Origin: Escherichia phage HMD-6
DNA: 64,000 bases
Strand: one strand, 5' to 3'
Sequence record: PQ505080.1
The notes beneath the pieces were generated by a model. That model made no database searches, was not told the origin of the DNA, and worked only from the letters and a program-made list of their open reading frames with translations. Position 1 is the stretch's first letter. Each line of letters starts with the position of its first letter. Position numbers and translations under genes: made by a program. Below are positions 8,393-37,166 of the stretch, piece after piece.

Positions 8393-9061
8393 ATGGCTGT
8401 AGCTTATCCTACAATACCAATTCCAGATCTTGAAGATGCAGAAACAGTCCTGAGTGATGACTTCTTGGTTGTCAACCAGACTGATGGGACAAGAAAGGCT
8501 AAGATTGACGATGTTGTCAACGATCTTAGCATTACTAAGATAGTCTATTTCACAGAGGGTGGTTATCTTAAGAGCAAGAAGGACTTTGCTTATGATCCAG
8601 AAACTAAGCGCTACTACACGTGGAATGGGGATTATCCTAAAATAATCCTCCCAGACTCCACTGTAGAGGGTGCTGGGGGTGTGTCTGCAAATGCCTGGTC
8701 TGTTTTTGGTGAGCTTGCTGCAACTTCTTCTGGCAGAATAGTTGATTACGGATCTATCGGTGGTCAGCTTGATATGGATCTTGAAGTTGCGGATACCTTT
8801 AAGGTTCGACTAACTTCAAATACCACAATCTCTTTTGAAAATCAAACAGAAGGTCTTGAAGGGGTGGCGAGAACCATAACCGTATGCATTACTCAGACCT
8901 CTGGCGGCAACAAAGTCTATTGGCCTGGTAATGTTAAATGGTCCTACGGAAGAGATCCTATCCTAACATTTACAGCTGGTGCAACAGACATTTTCAAGTT
9001 GGAAACCTACGACAACGGGCTAACTTGGTACGGGGCACTGATTATCGCAGGAGCTATCTAA
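8393..9061 (+). CDS. tail fibre/spike-related protein with conserved N-terminal anchor domain
   Basis: N-terminal ~100 aa ('DDFLVVNQTDGTRKAKIDDVV ... EGGYL ... DFAY ... W') is paralogous to the N-terminus of the 1479-aa fibre at 11696. Confidence 0.5.
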   Translation: MAVAYPTIPIPDLEDAETVLSDDFLVVNQTDGTRKAKIDDVVNDLSITKIVYFTEGGYLKSKKDFAYDPETKRYYTWNGDYPKIILPDSTVEGAGGVSANAWSVFGELAATSSGRIVDYGSIGGQLDMDLEVADTFKVRLTSNTTISFENQTEGLEGVARTITVCITQTSGGNKVYWPGNVKWSYGRDPILTFTAGATDIFKLETYDNGLTWYGALIIAGAI

Positions 9062-9062
9062 G

Positions 9063-34500: not shown

Positions 34501-37166
34501 GATCAAACATGGATGGGACATCCATGTCTATGCAAATCCCAGTAACAAATGGGTACAAACGTGTTGTAATGATCATTAAGTGCGACCTAATAGGTAAACA
34601 AGTTCTTGCAGAAAACGGGACCTCCACACATCCTTTTGAGATCGCTCTACACTATCAGTTTGCTGACTCACCTTTTGCAGGTGATAAGAGAATATCTGAT
34701 ACAGATGCACAGCGTTGTAAGAAGGTGTTGTTAGGTGCAGGTTGGTGGTGGTATGAATTTGATTTAACAGACAAATTCACCGACACGTCAAAAGTTGTAA
34801 CGGGTCTTCGTCTAGACCTTGGCGAGAACATGCACAAATCTGTTTGTGATGGCACCTATGGTGACCCTACAGTATATCTAAAGTATGTCTCTTTTGAGCA
34901 TCCAGAAGATGTTGTTTACGGTCCAAAACTGAGATTGTTTGGCAGTTGGATTGCAAAAGACAGGGTAGGCATGGGTAAAAAGGTAAGAGGGTTCTTAGTT
35001 GATGCAGGAACAGAAGACATGCTGGTTAATGCAGTATGGCCTGAATTGCCTGGCACTCAGTGGGATAACTCAGCCAAGTCCATAAACTGGTTCAACATTC
35101 ACAGAGCTATGTGGACCACTAACTGCTACTTATGGAGAGAGCTTAACGATCAGGCTTTTGGCTTCAGTAACGGTAGAAGGATGGCAATCATTTGCTGGAC
35201 AACGCTGCAAAGATGTTATGACCATGACTACGAGATTGGCGGTAGGGCATGGAAAGATATCAGGGATAGAATCATAACTAATTTTGCAGACGACAACGGC
35301 GGTGGAGCACATAACTTCGGCACAAGTAGACTTATTCACTTGAACGGATCCCCTGCCTACAAGAAAGAGGGTTACTCTGGATCTATGATCGAGTGGGGTT
35401 TTGTGAAAGATACTCGCGTATTGATGGGTCAACAACTTGCTGCTGCAATAGGGCCTAACGCAGTGCAGTCTGTTAAACCAGCGTGGTTCGATATCCCAAT
35501 ATGGTCATCTGGAACACCAGGAACTGCGGCAATCAACCCTACCACTGGAGATCTGGAAATCTCTTGGGAGGACTTGAAGCAGGTTGGTGGCTGGGATAAG
35601 ACAGGCTACCAGGTGCAATGGTGGAGATCTGACGGATCGTTAGCGGCTGATGAGTTTGTTAAGGACAATTTCTACACCATGTCCTCTGCAAAAGCACAGC
35701 AATTGTTTGGTCAGGCCACTCCGTCGACGATCACCATGTCTATGAGCTGTAAAGACAACAGGACTGGAGCTCTGGGACCAAGGGTTGCTAAAGTTTTCTC
35801 AGGTATTAAATGGAATCTCCCTGTTCAAAGTGTTTCATGGAAGCAAATAGGTGATAACAAGCTACTGGTTACTCCTGCCTGCCAGTTCAACGCAACTCTC
35901 AACGTTGATCCCGCTGTTGCAGCAAACTCGGCTAGAGCTTCTGACTTCTCTGTGTCTAACACTGCTATGGCAGATGTGAGGAAGATTGACACACTGAACG
36001 CCAGAATTACCTGTAAAAACACTTATGGTACATTCCAGATCATCAACAACTTCACAGATGTTGATTCTAAGGTAGTGAGGACAGCAAGCCAGACTATGCA
36101 GTTAGGCACTCTGGCATACTCTGCCCTGATCACTGAACAGTCTCCTACCCTTCAGGGTGGAGGTGTTGGTAAGTTGATTACAACTCCTGTATGGAAGCCG
36201 AATGAGTGGGTTGTGTTCGATTTGACTGTGGACTTCTCCAGTGATAATAACTGGACATGGGTAAGGAATTGCTTGTCACAGTTGATGGGTGGTCAAAACT
36301 CCATTAGTGATAGCCATGACTCTACTGACCCGAGTGTGTTCCAGATTGGTAAAACTCACCCAGAGACTGGGGCACCGTTGCCTGACAGGAAGTATGCTTT
36401 GGTTTGCATCTCTTACGGAAAAGCAGATGTCACCTTCTCAGGGACACACACTTATAATGGAACTTACAACTTCTCAAGGAAGTATAGTCTCAAGGCAGGT
36501 AACATTATAGATGAAGTTGGTGTGTTGTATAACCCAGGTAACGGCATAGGGATTGTGGGTGGTAAACTGCAGATGCAGGAACCTTCTATTACCCCTTCCA
36601 ATGTGTCTGGGATTAGAAAGACTTGGGAAAGCAGTAATACTGACATTGCAACAGTGGATGCTACCACAGGGCTGGTAACATTTAAAGCCCCTGGTAATGT
36701 CACTATAACGTTTGTAGCTACCGATGATGCAGGGCGCAAAACGTCTTCAACATCTTTTACTGTCAAACAGATGACACCACAGTGGAGAATGTGGATAGGT
36801 ACAGCAACAGACGGGGCATACCCTAATCCGGCAGGGACTTCTGGTATGAAGACTTTCTCTACAAGCAAGCCGATGGAGTACGGCAGTGGTCCTAAGGTAG
36901 GGCAGATGGTGTACTTTGGTGCATATATTCCTGAAATTATAGGGCTTCCGAGAAGTCAGCTTCAGTTGCTGTTTGGGGCTGGTGTTGACGAGCTTGCCAC
37001 TTTCGGGTATAGCGACAACATCGAGGCTGCAAGGAGTTCAGGATGGGTAGGGTTCAGAATGGAGTCTGGAAAGGAAGGCAGGATTCTAGGGACAGCCTCT
37101 ATAGGTGTTATGTTCCCTGGTGACCAGCAGTATCGTCTGGGAGCCTACGCAACTTTCTCTCTTTAA
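31530..37166 (+). CDS. giant tail-associated adhesin/fibre-like protein
   Basis: 1878 aa; N-terminal RCC1/beta-propeller-like repeats, and a bacterial Ig-like (Big_2-type) segment 'ITPSNVSGIRKTWESSNTDIATVDATTGLVTFKAPGNVTITFVATDDAGRKTSS' near the C-terminus. Confidence 0.55.
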   Translation: MLPIPLLKLGRHFLDKRGGVKELAVLSYPIDNSDGTSTTVAYVNSLAILFDNGQLNITGYNKFGECRTGDRNPINYPSETAWNVDHVWRADRAFVIRTFDNQFFYIGCTAGLIGSTAAGGNDVYVNEWTPLPEQIVKGLHLDTHPERLVEVMGGINNTVWVIAEAEGTGILHLYGSGNNTYGSLHVDKNQHATPVKIGETSENPETGPWKNPRINCEVHDNSVIFGGPRGFWIAGYDFLRNNSRNDLVWPPAQITRDDLRGIPADEEWKGFMCGPNGAVVVTQRMHRPDDQQLVNVFYGQDVWGDDTWRALNITYTHEVIMARGYGTSGIFFNNGTKQYRGFSRNLCNDIGAQSANNNPRANFIHYQALATAKYVEQRLPVSWTESVYFQGIHREGFLGTFTVVNGKLWWSGIPRGSFAGSNNLFGGRLNSQGFTEVPENWYKNVPVDSWGVDDIFDVNGVSSVSNIYIGDTVKMKLKPQPEGATFIIDKIELVNAAGTVVTDANYQFSTNWNHGGANEVIVTQYNRNVNRRGLYSVKITYHDKHGTGRTHTTRTLNWNTIVPAYPSEGKWHTVGRNKQFHVNDTVYFGLNGAQPAVEGDTSYMVRLHRMDAGSVTYDVTQEIYDQRRNTYNNLVQTQALWEFNPNGRGGKMLQINEQNGTSLTVHEHSDPWPDPGKPHPGARTLKIVSHDVGYFGIRWEATVRYADGTTNNIGITLGGTSEDNSLKIAYTPRGISIDNMDVVRNGYGDVNIKVTLGEHLGGERIIMYAFDHDPRTNGTYANQAWSYLINAPEPNTKEFYYGMKRDVCKKTGTHDWIAICVKDERTAWDEPVNRWFIGIPTRSDKYIAEYIVCMGGTNLNMCWNEDANKYSDYDYMRDYSCNQWFNQSTGYPPRQARVNPAIFTDTQVFLTKQANEVQTFKNKYDPNKWFYNCYGAFFWGPGELPGGGSCFESATYASDYIMGQVKKYKIIPGPETLGNAVDPYIVMTALRSNMDGTSMSMQIPVTNGYKRVVMIIKCDLIGKQVLAENGTSTHPFEIALHYQFADSPFAGDKRISDTDAQRCKKVLLGAGWWWYEFDLTDKFTDTSKVVTGLRLDLGENMHKSVCDGTYGDPTVYLKYVSFEHPEDVVYGPKLRLFGSWIAKDRVGMGKKVRGFLVDAGTEDMLVNAVWPELPGTQWDNSAKSINWFNIHRAMWTTNCYLWRELNDQAFGFSNGRRMAIICWTTLQRCYDHDYEIGGRAWKDIRDRIITNFADDNGGGAHNFGTSRLIHLNGSPAYKKEGYSGSMIEWGFVKDTRVLMGQQLAAAIGPNAVQSVKPAWFDIPIWSSGTPGTAAINPTTGDLEISWEDLKQVGGWDKTGYQVQWWRSDGSLAADEFVKDNFYTMSSAKAQQLFGQATPSTITMSMSCKDNRTGALGPRVAKVFSGIKWNLPVQSVSWKQIGDNKLLVTPACQFNATLNVDPAVAANSARASDFSVSNTAMADVRKIDTLNARITCKNTYGTFQIINNFTDVDSKVVRTASQTMQLGTLAYSALITEQSPTLQGGGVGKLITTPVWKPNEWVVFDLTVDFSSDNNWTWVRNCLSQLMGGQNSISDSHDSTDPSVFQIGKTHPETGAPLPDRKYALVCISYGKADVTFSGTHTYNGTYNFSRKYSLKAGNIIDEVGVLYNPGNGIGIVGGKLQMQEPSITPSNVSGIRKTWESSNTDIATVDATTGLVTFKAPGNVTITFVATDDAGRKTSSTSFTVKQMTPQWRMWIGTATDGAYPNPAGTSGMKTFSTSKPMEYGSGPKVGQMVYFGAYIPEIIGLPRSQLQLLFGAGVDELATFGYSDNIEAARSSGWVGFRMESGKEGRILGTASIGVMFPGDQQYRLGAYATFSL

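Follow-up and report, generated by a model that had tools for sequence, protein, structure and literature searches.

A Vequintavirus-type tail-fibre locus in Escherichia phage HMD-6 and its siphovirus-like tail-tip cassette

The multivalent adsorption apparatus of the rV5-like phages and their relatives is known in the literature as a "Swiss army knife". Bas49, a Vequintavirus of Escherichia coli, was published as encoding "nine annotated tail fiber proteins", three of which have been visualised with cryo-electron microscopy (cryo-EM). In the RBPseg paper, cryo-EM of Bas49 and Bas54 allowed three fibres to be fitted near the baseplate. The short one is Mu-like and belongs to class TC1; a second, of class TC8, has a head in contact with unassigned density; the third is a long fibre of class TC12, which ends in a lectin-like head in Bas49. 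In phi92, three co-expressed fibre sets are carried on the wedge, and fibre II, itself still unassigned, is attached to the base of fibre I. According to Maffei et al., variation between genomes is limited to the three largest genes, and the phages require wecB and the glucose of the lipopolysaccharide (LPS) core. The primary receptor was first thought to be the enterobacterial common antigen and was later re-assigned to the N4 glycan receptor (NGR), while LPS-core glucose is the terminal receptor. This study concerns positions 8393-37166 of a 64,000-nucleotide (nt) stretch of Escherichia phage HMD-6 (PQ505080.1; the whole stretch is referred to as the window), where an initial annotation had described an unusually large, modular set of receptor-binding genes.

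The locus is very probably a canonical Vequintavirus locus for baseplate and tail fibres, transcribed late, and its sequence predicts a multivalent adsorption apparatus on a P2/Mu-type baseplate. A megablast search with window positions 8000-30000 matched 126 phage records, 109 of which reached at least 80% query cover at 90-95% identity; nearly all were Vequintavirus (rV5-like) myophages of E. coli, such as ECP26, B9-1, EmilHeitz (Bas49) and rV5_ev146. The same pattern of matches was obtained with positions 29000-38000, so that overall the region 8000-38000 is 90-96% identical over 96-100% of the query in at least 109 Vequintavirus records; DNA identity to more than 100 genomes is 93-95%. Gene order and gene sizes agree with those of the annotated Bas49 and rV5_ev146 loci. 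All nine open reading frames (ORFs) of the initial annotation are present on the plus strand (Table 1), and their products are 95.1-100% identical over the full length to the Bas49 orthologues bas49_0024, 25, 26, 31, 34, 35, 38, 40 and 41 (tblastn), each of them annotated as a lateral or a short tail fibre. Each product matches a tail, fibre or structural family or is orthologous to an annotated fibre gene, in agreement with the earlier view of these genes as fibres, spikes or tail-associated enzymes. The further suggestion of a multivalent, partly branched apparatus for several glycans or receptors fits the published data on this phage group (the phi92 fibre sets, the Bas49/Bas54 cryo-EM and the two receptors), the window proteins being 95-100% identical to those of Bas49. 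Nine such genes do occur, but the word "unusually" has to be dropped, as nine is the normal number for the genus. The many-fibred arsenal is an already known family trait, published for near-identical phages (94-95% identity in DNA); the finding is real but ordinary, and as a discovery it adds nothing beyond them. The sole part with some novelty, and the least described, is a siphovirus-type gene cassette encoding a distal tail protein (Dit) and a lambda-J-like protein.

Separately, the database matches to positions 8000-38000 include 16-18 unannotated records (MG0656xx) that bear the name "Campylobacter phage" and give C. jejuni as host. Their identity to the present E. coli Vequintavirus locus is 90-95%, and the host label looks doubtful. 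Paralogue expansion was also considered as an origin of the nine genes and was ruled out: kinship is restricted to the two short fibres, which are 43% identical over the whole length, and to the N-termini of the 222-amino-acid (aa) and 1479-aa proteins, where residues 8-105 of the former are 38% identical to the latter.

Late transcription of the locus is, as judged from sequence motifs, cut into about five units by terminator/late-promoter cassettes. The terminator-promoter cassettes that had been noted between fibre genes were recovered in three places, each consisting of a G+C-rich hairpin with a T-tract and, at a hairpin-to-motif spacing of 20-36 nt, the rV5 late-promoter motif TGKTAAAATA. 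Four copies of this motif occur in the whole window against 0.33 expected, a count reached in none of 100 shuffles, and all four are intergenic and on the plus strand. A generic sigma-70 promoter scan showed no enrichment (35 matches against 33.7 expected from shuffles), and the rV5 motif was therefore relied on. Two further hairpins are not followed by the motif, and the sign of the GC skew flips at the second of them, the bidirectional terminator that closes the structural block. The rV5 counterparts t041/P040, P036, P030, t028 and t027 were predicted by Kropinski et al. In addition, a short G+C-rich hairpin, GGGGGCTGTTTGCCCCC, followed by TTTC and no late-promoter motif, was observed at 11662-11685 (plus strand) in the 35-nt gap between the 865-aa and 1479-aa genes; it may be an attenuator inside the first late unit.

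The baseplate platform on which the fibres would dock is recognisable. The 496-aa wedge protein carries a Baseplate_J domain (Pfam, E 2e-9; phrog_6), the 228-aa protein matches wedge 1 of phiTE (9mjn_dh, E 2.7e-65) and phi92 gp146 (E 4.5e-22), and the two are homologous to phi92 gp145 and gp146, respectively. For the tail axis, there are genes for a P2-type tube initiator, a hub and an iron-tipped spike; their phi92 homologues are gp135, gp137 and the spike protein. In phiTE, the short fibre sits on wedge 1, and the long fibre on wedge 2A together with a helix of the sheath initiator, the C-terminal helix of which joins the N-terminal bundle of the long fibre. By homology, the two wedge proteins and the sheath initiator are the docking platform of the window phage.

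The fibre proteins carry several kinds of predicted anchor. In short fibre 1, a match to the short tail fibre of phiTE (9cuy_c, E 1.7e-19) covers residues 1-108, and one to the Mu fibre protein S (5yvq, E 5e-6) covers residues 286-343; short fibre 2, as the paralogue of short fibre 1, would carry the same phiTE-type anchor and Mu-S-like tip. The ORF of short fibre 2 opens with a GTG one codon 5' of the ATG at 28407 that is annotated as the start in relatives, and this ATG is likely the true start. The dedicated assembly chaperone that had been proposed to follow one fibre was identified as the Caudo_TAP gene directly 3' of short fibre 1; only this paralogue has a chaperone gene next downstream, and the chaperone is 31% identical to phi92 gp148. 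Two small proteins with hydrophobic segments, of 104 and 88 aa, are also embedded among the fibre genes of the structural operon. The 581-aa lateral fibre, which probably belongs to RBPseg class TC8, matches the phiTE long tail fibre over residues 8-325 (9cuy_g, E 1.1e-76). Its residues 6-112 are 44% identical to the N-terminus of phi92 gp150 and its residues 486-581 are 49% identical to the C-terminus of gp151, so that, compared with phi92, a gp150-type anchor is recombined with a gp151-type head.

The 222-aa and 1479-aa proteins both contain a Tail_spike_N domain (PF18668, the TSP1/gp66 N domain), at residues 51-105 (E 2.1e-10) and 46-103 (E 1.2e-9), respectively. The smaller protein further matches phrog_7760 (tail fiber protein, E 8e-120), and its residues 109-222 are 42% identical to phi92 gp140. 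The larger one belongs to phrog_6578 (tail fiber protein) with a C-terminal module swapped in from phrog_1419, and its extreme C-terminus gives a weak Laminin_G_3/ConA-like match, in agreement with the lectin-like head on the Bas49 fibre. The start of a 110-aa ORF overlaps the stop codon of the 1479-aa gene; its product has no Pfam match, and a small adhesin or a chaperone specific to the fibre would fit such a position. No beta-helix or pectate-lyase family match indicative of a depolymerase body was found in standard or relaxed Pfam scans.

The locus also encodes at least two modules of enzyme-like or glycan-binding type. The predicted structure of the 865-aa protein is an (alpha/alpha)6 six-hairpin glycosidase fold, although its sequence identity to the matched structures is only 8-14% and no family-level sequence match was found. 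The model, with a predicted local distance difference test (pLDDT) value of 70, was built on 7 sequences; a homologue search gave only 6 matches. According to this model, the protein looks like a globular enzyme rather than a fibre. The 690-aa protein contains the NCTSP TIM barrel (PF23845, E 2.6e-80) and NCTSP_N (E 9e-14), with Calx-beta slightly under the cut-off; it matches Gp64 of phage N4 (9lc0_M, E 4e-24) and is 42% identical to phi92 gp142. The gp142 family has been named as the NGR-binding protein of Vequintavirus and Justusliebigvirus, and infection by Vequintavirus phages was reported to depend on the NGR glycan in genetic screens. By analogy, the 690-aa protein is predicted to be an N4-like receptor-binding protein for this glycan.

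The giant 1878-aa protein is a plausible, putative fibre. It contains one clear Big_2 domain (Pfam, E 4.6e-9, residues 1682-1733) and weakly matches intimin in the PDB (E 1e-3); over its full length it belongs to phrog_15684 (unknown function), while its C-terminus matches phrog_215, a structural protein with an Ig domain. Full-length homologues are confined to Vequintavirus, and residues 1-197 share about 38% identity with a "tail protein" of relatives of about 150 kb. A sub-threshold RCC1-like match at residues 44-198 was the sole addition from the relaxed Pfam scans, and a search for internal repeats in the protein found none.

The siphovirus-type cassette comprises four plus-strand genes at 16565-21972, between the first and second terminator-promoter cassettes, and has its own late promoter and terminator (unit 16526-22000). 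The first product was identified as a Dit protein: a 78-sequence alignment matched T5 pb9 significantly (hhalign), in keeping with the Dit fold, whereas a 5-sequence alignment did not (E 0.19). The larger alignment was drawn from a search of representatives, as the plain homologue search gave only 6 matches. The third product, a DUF6950 protein, is annotated as "cell wall hydrolase protein" in Bas49 and Yersinia phage P840. The fourth, the 1279-aa protein, contains Ig_J_second (E 1e-30) and Phage_Tail_Tip (E 2e-38) domains and matches lambda J in the PDB (E 1e-27); the profile of its first about 520 residues matches the T5 hub protein pb3 (E 3.4e-18). No match was obtained when three of the cassette proteins were used as one concatenated query in a homologue search and in phmmer against the PDB.

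Over residues 48-758, the 1279-aa protein shares 55% identity with the J-like tip protein of the siphovirus GottfriedDienst (Seuratvirus Bas21). For the three genes before it, identity to the three genes after the tape measure of that phage is 32%, 40% and 45%, so that the cassette is syntenic with tail-tip genes 17-20 of Bas21. The order tape measure, Dit, a gene of about 190 aa, a gene of about 140 aa, and J is also found in Yersinia, Pseudomonas and Vibrio siphoviruses, and in four siphoviruses these genes directly follow the tape measure. This adjacency is absent from the window, where the tape-measure gene lies at 2253-4592 and the cassette stands apart behind its own promoter. The phi92 tail locus contains no homologue of any of the four genes. 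The N-terminus of the J-like protein matched 469 records; in a spread sample, all matches outside Vequintavirus came from genomes of 26-126 kb, apart from two partial records of about 3-6 kb, and those annotated were J-like, central or tail fibre proteins. The N-terminal about 45 aa are polar in the window protein, whereas they are Ala/Gly/Ile-rich and hydrophobic in the siphovirus homologues (best 19-aa Kyte-Doolittle window 0.31 against 1.7-2.3). The C-terminus (the allelic part at residues about 1137-1279) differs between genomes, the protein being 82% identical to that of rV5_ev146 against 98.5% for Bas49. The cassette itself is intact and is conserved at 96-99% in relatives. We infer that it was acquired from a Queuovirinae-like siphovirus. 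[quoted passage not shown] In the literature, single genes are annotated as "J-like" or "distal tail protein"; no description of the four genes as a unit was found.

A possible course of adsorption can be drawn from published relatives. [quoted passage not shown] Strain-specific surface glycans may fall to the variable long fibres and the enzymes. The 581-aa fibre would be anchored to wedge 2 and the sheath initiator in the manner of the phiTE long fibre, whereas the 222-aa and 1479-aa proteins may dock through their common Tail_spike_N module, of the kind found in branched tailspike complexes. One fibre type, by homology, needs the Mu-U-like chaperone. Movement of fibres and wedge would then release the sheath initiator and start contraction. 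As a speculative step, the Dit/J set may act as an additional receptor-binding organelle. Published work gives no gene-to-fibre assignment, and the assignments offered here (wedge 1 for the short fibres, wedge 2 and the sheath initiator for the 581-aa fibre, common docking of the 222-aa and 1479-aa proteins, and a glycosidase fold for the 865-aa protein) are testable hypotheses for fibre engineering.

How many of the nine proteins belong to the working apparatus has to be weighed against the virion data. For about five of them (the 1479-aa, 690-aa and 581-aa proteins and the two short fibres), structural or genetic evidence exists in relatives. Virion proteomics, named by the initial annotation as a test that could overturn its proposal, bears it out in part only and comes from old, shallow rV5 data: in a mass-spectrometry table of 19 loci, gp41 (the 1479-aa protein) has eight mostly good peptides and gp37 (the J-like protein) one good tryptic peptide, gp34 (690 aa) and gp27 (1878 aa) have non-tryptic low-score peptides only (three for gp27), and gp42 (865 aa) and gp43 (222 aa) are not listed. 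The "proteomics" of PMC10698182 is in silico only. It is conceivable, if rather unlikely, that the apparatus is smaller than the gene count and consists of three fibre sets (short, 581-aa and 1479-aa) and the NGR-binding protein, with the 865-aa, Dit/J, 1878-aa and 222-aa proteins serving as assembly factors, as low-copy or facultative parts, or in non-structural roles. The gaps in the rV5 table would fit this explanation, as would the cryo-EM density of Bas49 and Bas54, which accounts for three fibres only near the baseplate, and the modelled fold of the 865-aa protein, which is that of an enzyme. However, the text of the rV5 paper names gp30, gp32, gp33, gp37, gp42 and gp43, together with gp41, as detected; all these genes lie in late structural operons behind late promoters and are 95-100% conserved across more than 100 genomes; and averaged maps routinely lose flexible distal parts, the head of the TC8 fibre touching unassigned density. 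The multivalent apparatus is the preferred reading, although several points weigh against it. All its support comes from homology to studied relatives; cryo-EM of Bas49 and Bas54 resolved just three of the nine proteins; the rV5 table covers only 19 loci, with good peptides for gp41 and a single one for gp37 among the nine. The glycosidase fold of the 865-aa protein comes from a model of pLDDT 70 from 7 sequences, and the protein is a putative enzyme. The virion evidence for the 1878-aa protein is weak, the 1279-aa protein is a siphovirus hub and central-fibre protein on a myovirus, and neither the Dit/J cassette nor the 1878-aa protein is assigned a place on the particle by the present data.

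For the cassette, the idea that its products form a Dit-ring/J-trimer receptor-binding organelle on the baseplate of a contractile tail is speculative and held only tentatively. If true, it would be a previously undescribed way to build a receptor-binding appendage and a clear example of the transfer of an entire sub-assembly from one tail morphotype to another. The cassette might instead, although this seems improbable, stand outside the lateral fibre system, either as a single central or tip-proximal complex (one Dit hexamer and one J trimer per virion) or as a relic of recombination with a siphovirus that no longer contributes to adsorption. Fold and profile evidence indicates true Dit and hub proteins, which lie on the tail axis in every solved case; the very low spectral counts of rV5 gp37 would fit three copies per virion; and phi92 is multivalent without the cassette. 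On the other hand, the axis is already filled by the P2-type tube initiator, the hub and the iron-tipped spike, and the cassette is intact, lies behind its own late promoter and is 96-99% conserved. The allelic variation of the J C-terminus is typical of receptor-binding ends, which argues against a relic. Within the locus, only the Dit/J cassette raises a fresh structural question.

Table 1. Features of the tail-fibre locus of phage HMD-6 (window positions; E values from the searches described in the text unless stated)
Feature	Position	Strand	Length	Relatives and remarks
Sheath initiator	7667-8383	+		phmmer: phiTE 9mjn_d6 E 9e-60; phi92 gp139 E 5.5e-14
Small fibre or adaptor protein	8393-9061	+	222 aa	rV5 gp43; bas49_0024, 100% identical to Bas49 protein
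Tail-associated enzyme-like protein	9063-11660	+	865 aa	rV5 gp42; phi92 gp141 homologue
Long lateral fibre	11696-16135	+	1479 aa	rV5 gp41 allele; bas49_0026, 95.7% identical to Bas49 protein; RBPseg class TC12
ORF after long lateral fibre	16135-16467	+	110 aa	phrog_1361 (unknown function) E 1.8e-25; conserved in Bas49 and rV5_ev146
Terminator-promoter cassette 1	16474-16535	+		hairpin 16474-16493; late-promoter motif TGGTAAAATA 16526-16535; rV5 t041/P040
Distal tail protein (Dit), siphovirus type	16565-17155	+	196 aa	T5-pb9-like
Minor tail protein	17142-17708	+	about 183-188 aa	phrog_2048 tail protein E 9e-68; start annotated about 15 nt downstream in relatives
DUF6950 protein	17696-18133	+	about 141-145 aa	Pfam DUF6950 E 1.3e-33
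Hub and central-fibre protein, lambda-J/T5-pb3-like	18133-21972	+	1279 aa	rV5 gp37
Terminator-promoter cassette 2	21979-22045	+		hairpin 21979-22000; promoter TTGACT-17-TAAAAT / TGGTAAAATA 22016-22045, motif from 22036; rV5 P036
Baseplate wedge proteins, Baseplate_J-like (from 22078) and wedge 1 (from 23580)	22078-24266	+	496 aa; 228 aa	
N4-like glycan-binding, deacetylase-type receptor-binding protein (predicted)	24266-26338	+	690 aa	rV5 gp34
Short tail fibre 1	26351-27391	+	346 aa	rV5 gp33; RBPseg class TC1; phrog_4465; homologous to phi92 gp147 (fibre III)
Tail fibre assembly chaperone	27406-27990	+	194 aa	rV5 gp32; Caudo_TAP (PF02413) E 9.6e-12; phrog_136 (tail fiber assembly protein) E 1e-36
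Small protein, hydrophobic N-terminus and charged helix-like remainder	28002-28316	+	104 aa	conserved in Bas49
Terminator-promoter cassette 3	28326-28376	+		palindromic hairpin 28326-28347; late-promoter motif TGTTAAAATA 28367-28376; rV5 P030
Short tail fibre 2	28404-29450	+	347-348 aa (348 from GTG)	rV5 gp30; phrog_4465 E 2.5e-162; paralogue of short tail fibre 1
Small hydrophobic protein	29460-29726	+	88 aa	37% identical to phi92 gp144 (annotated "membrane protein"), E 1e-13
Lateral fibre	29736-31481	+	581 aa	rV5 gp28
Terminator-like hairpin without late-promoter motif	31489-31510	+		rV5 t028
Ig-domain giant protein, putative fibre or adhesin	31530-37166	+	1878 aa	rV5 gp27
Bidirectional terminator closing the structural block, without motif	37181-37202			rV5 t027/t026

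Some observations were made elsewhere in the window. A group I intron (Rfam RF00028, 75.6 bits, E 2e-17, full-length model) lies at 60749-61036 on the plus strand and begins at the end of ORF 58335-60764, which has a weak DNA_pol_A match; it therefore looks as if a self-splicing intron interrupts the DNA polymerase gene. Positions 1-1369, upstream of a gp51-type gene, do not align with Bas49 or rV5_ev146 and were found in just four phage records (98.8% identity in JEP1, 81-84% in the other three). This sporadic distribution suggests a mobile insertion, possibly with a homing-endonuclease-like gene. An ORF there (96-1391, plus strand, 431 aa) opens with CxxC...CxxC motifs and has no Pfam match. 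In the divergent block after the structural genes, a 493-aa protein (41992-43473, minus strand) combines DUF2201_N, a putative metallopeptidase, with a VWA-like DUF2201 domain. No tRNA genes are present within the window.

Compared with known systems, the locus shares the Tail_spike_N module of its 222-aa and 1479-aa proteins with the branched complexes of CBA120 (TSP1-4) and G7C (gp63.1/gp66), and weak PDB matches to the N-termini of TSP1 and TSP3 add to the likeness with CBA120; unlike in these phages, the platform is a P2/Mu-type wedge and not an Ackermannviridae or podovirus adaptor. Homology with phiTE (Certrevirus; PDB 9cuy/9mjn) extends to the short- and long-fibre N-terminal anchors, to wedge 1 and to the sheath initiator (E 1e-19 to 1e-76), whereas the distal fibre parts differ, phiTE being flagellotropic with about three fibre candidates rather than nine. 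The same baseplate platform is found in phi92 (Justusliebigvirus; endosialidase gp143, colanidase gp150), with homologues of gp139-gp142 and gp144-gp148; the window phage contains no endosialidase or colanidase body, but several of its components lack a homologue in the phi92 tail locus: the second short-fibre paralogue, the 1479-aa protein, the 1878-aa protein and the cassette of four Dit/J genes. The cassette resembles the siphovirus tail tip (T5 pb9 Dit and pb3 hub; lambda M/L/K/I/J; Bas21) in its Dit fold and in its pb3/J hub domains, followed by Ig/FN3 domains and a central fibre. It differs in lying 12 kb downstream of the tape measure behind its own promoter, in belonging to a contractile-tailed phage with its own hub and spike, and in the replacement of the hydrophobic N-terminal segment of J by a polar one. 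The closest likeness is to the rV5/Bas49 locus, which has the same gene order, gene sizes, nine orthologues, and the terminators and late promoters predicted for rV5. The differences from rV5, Bas49 and rV5_ev146 are allelic only, as in the J-like protein, which is 82% identical to that of rV5_ev146, or in the gp41 allele of rV5, which is 1272 aa long with a peptidase-S74-type end, whereas Bas49 has the same 1479-aa allele with a lectin-like head.

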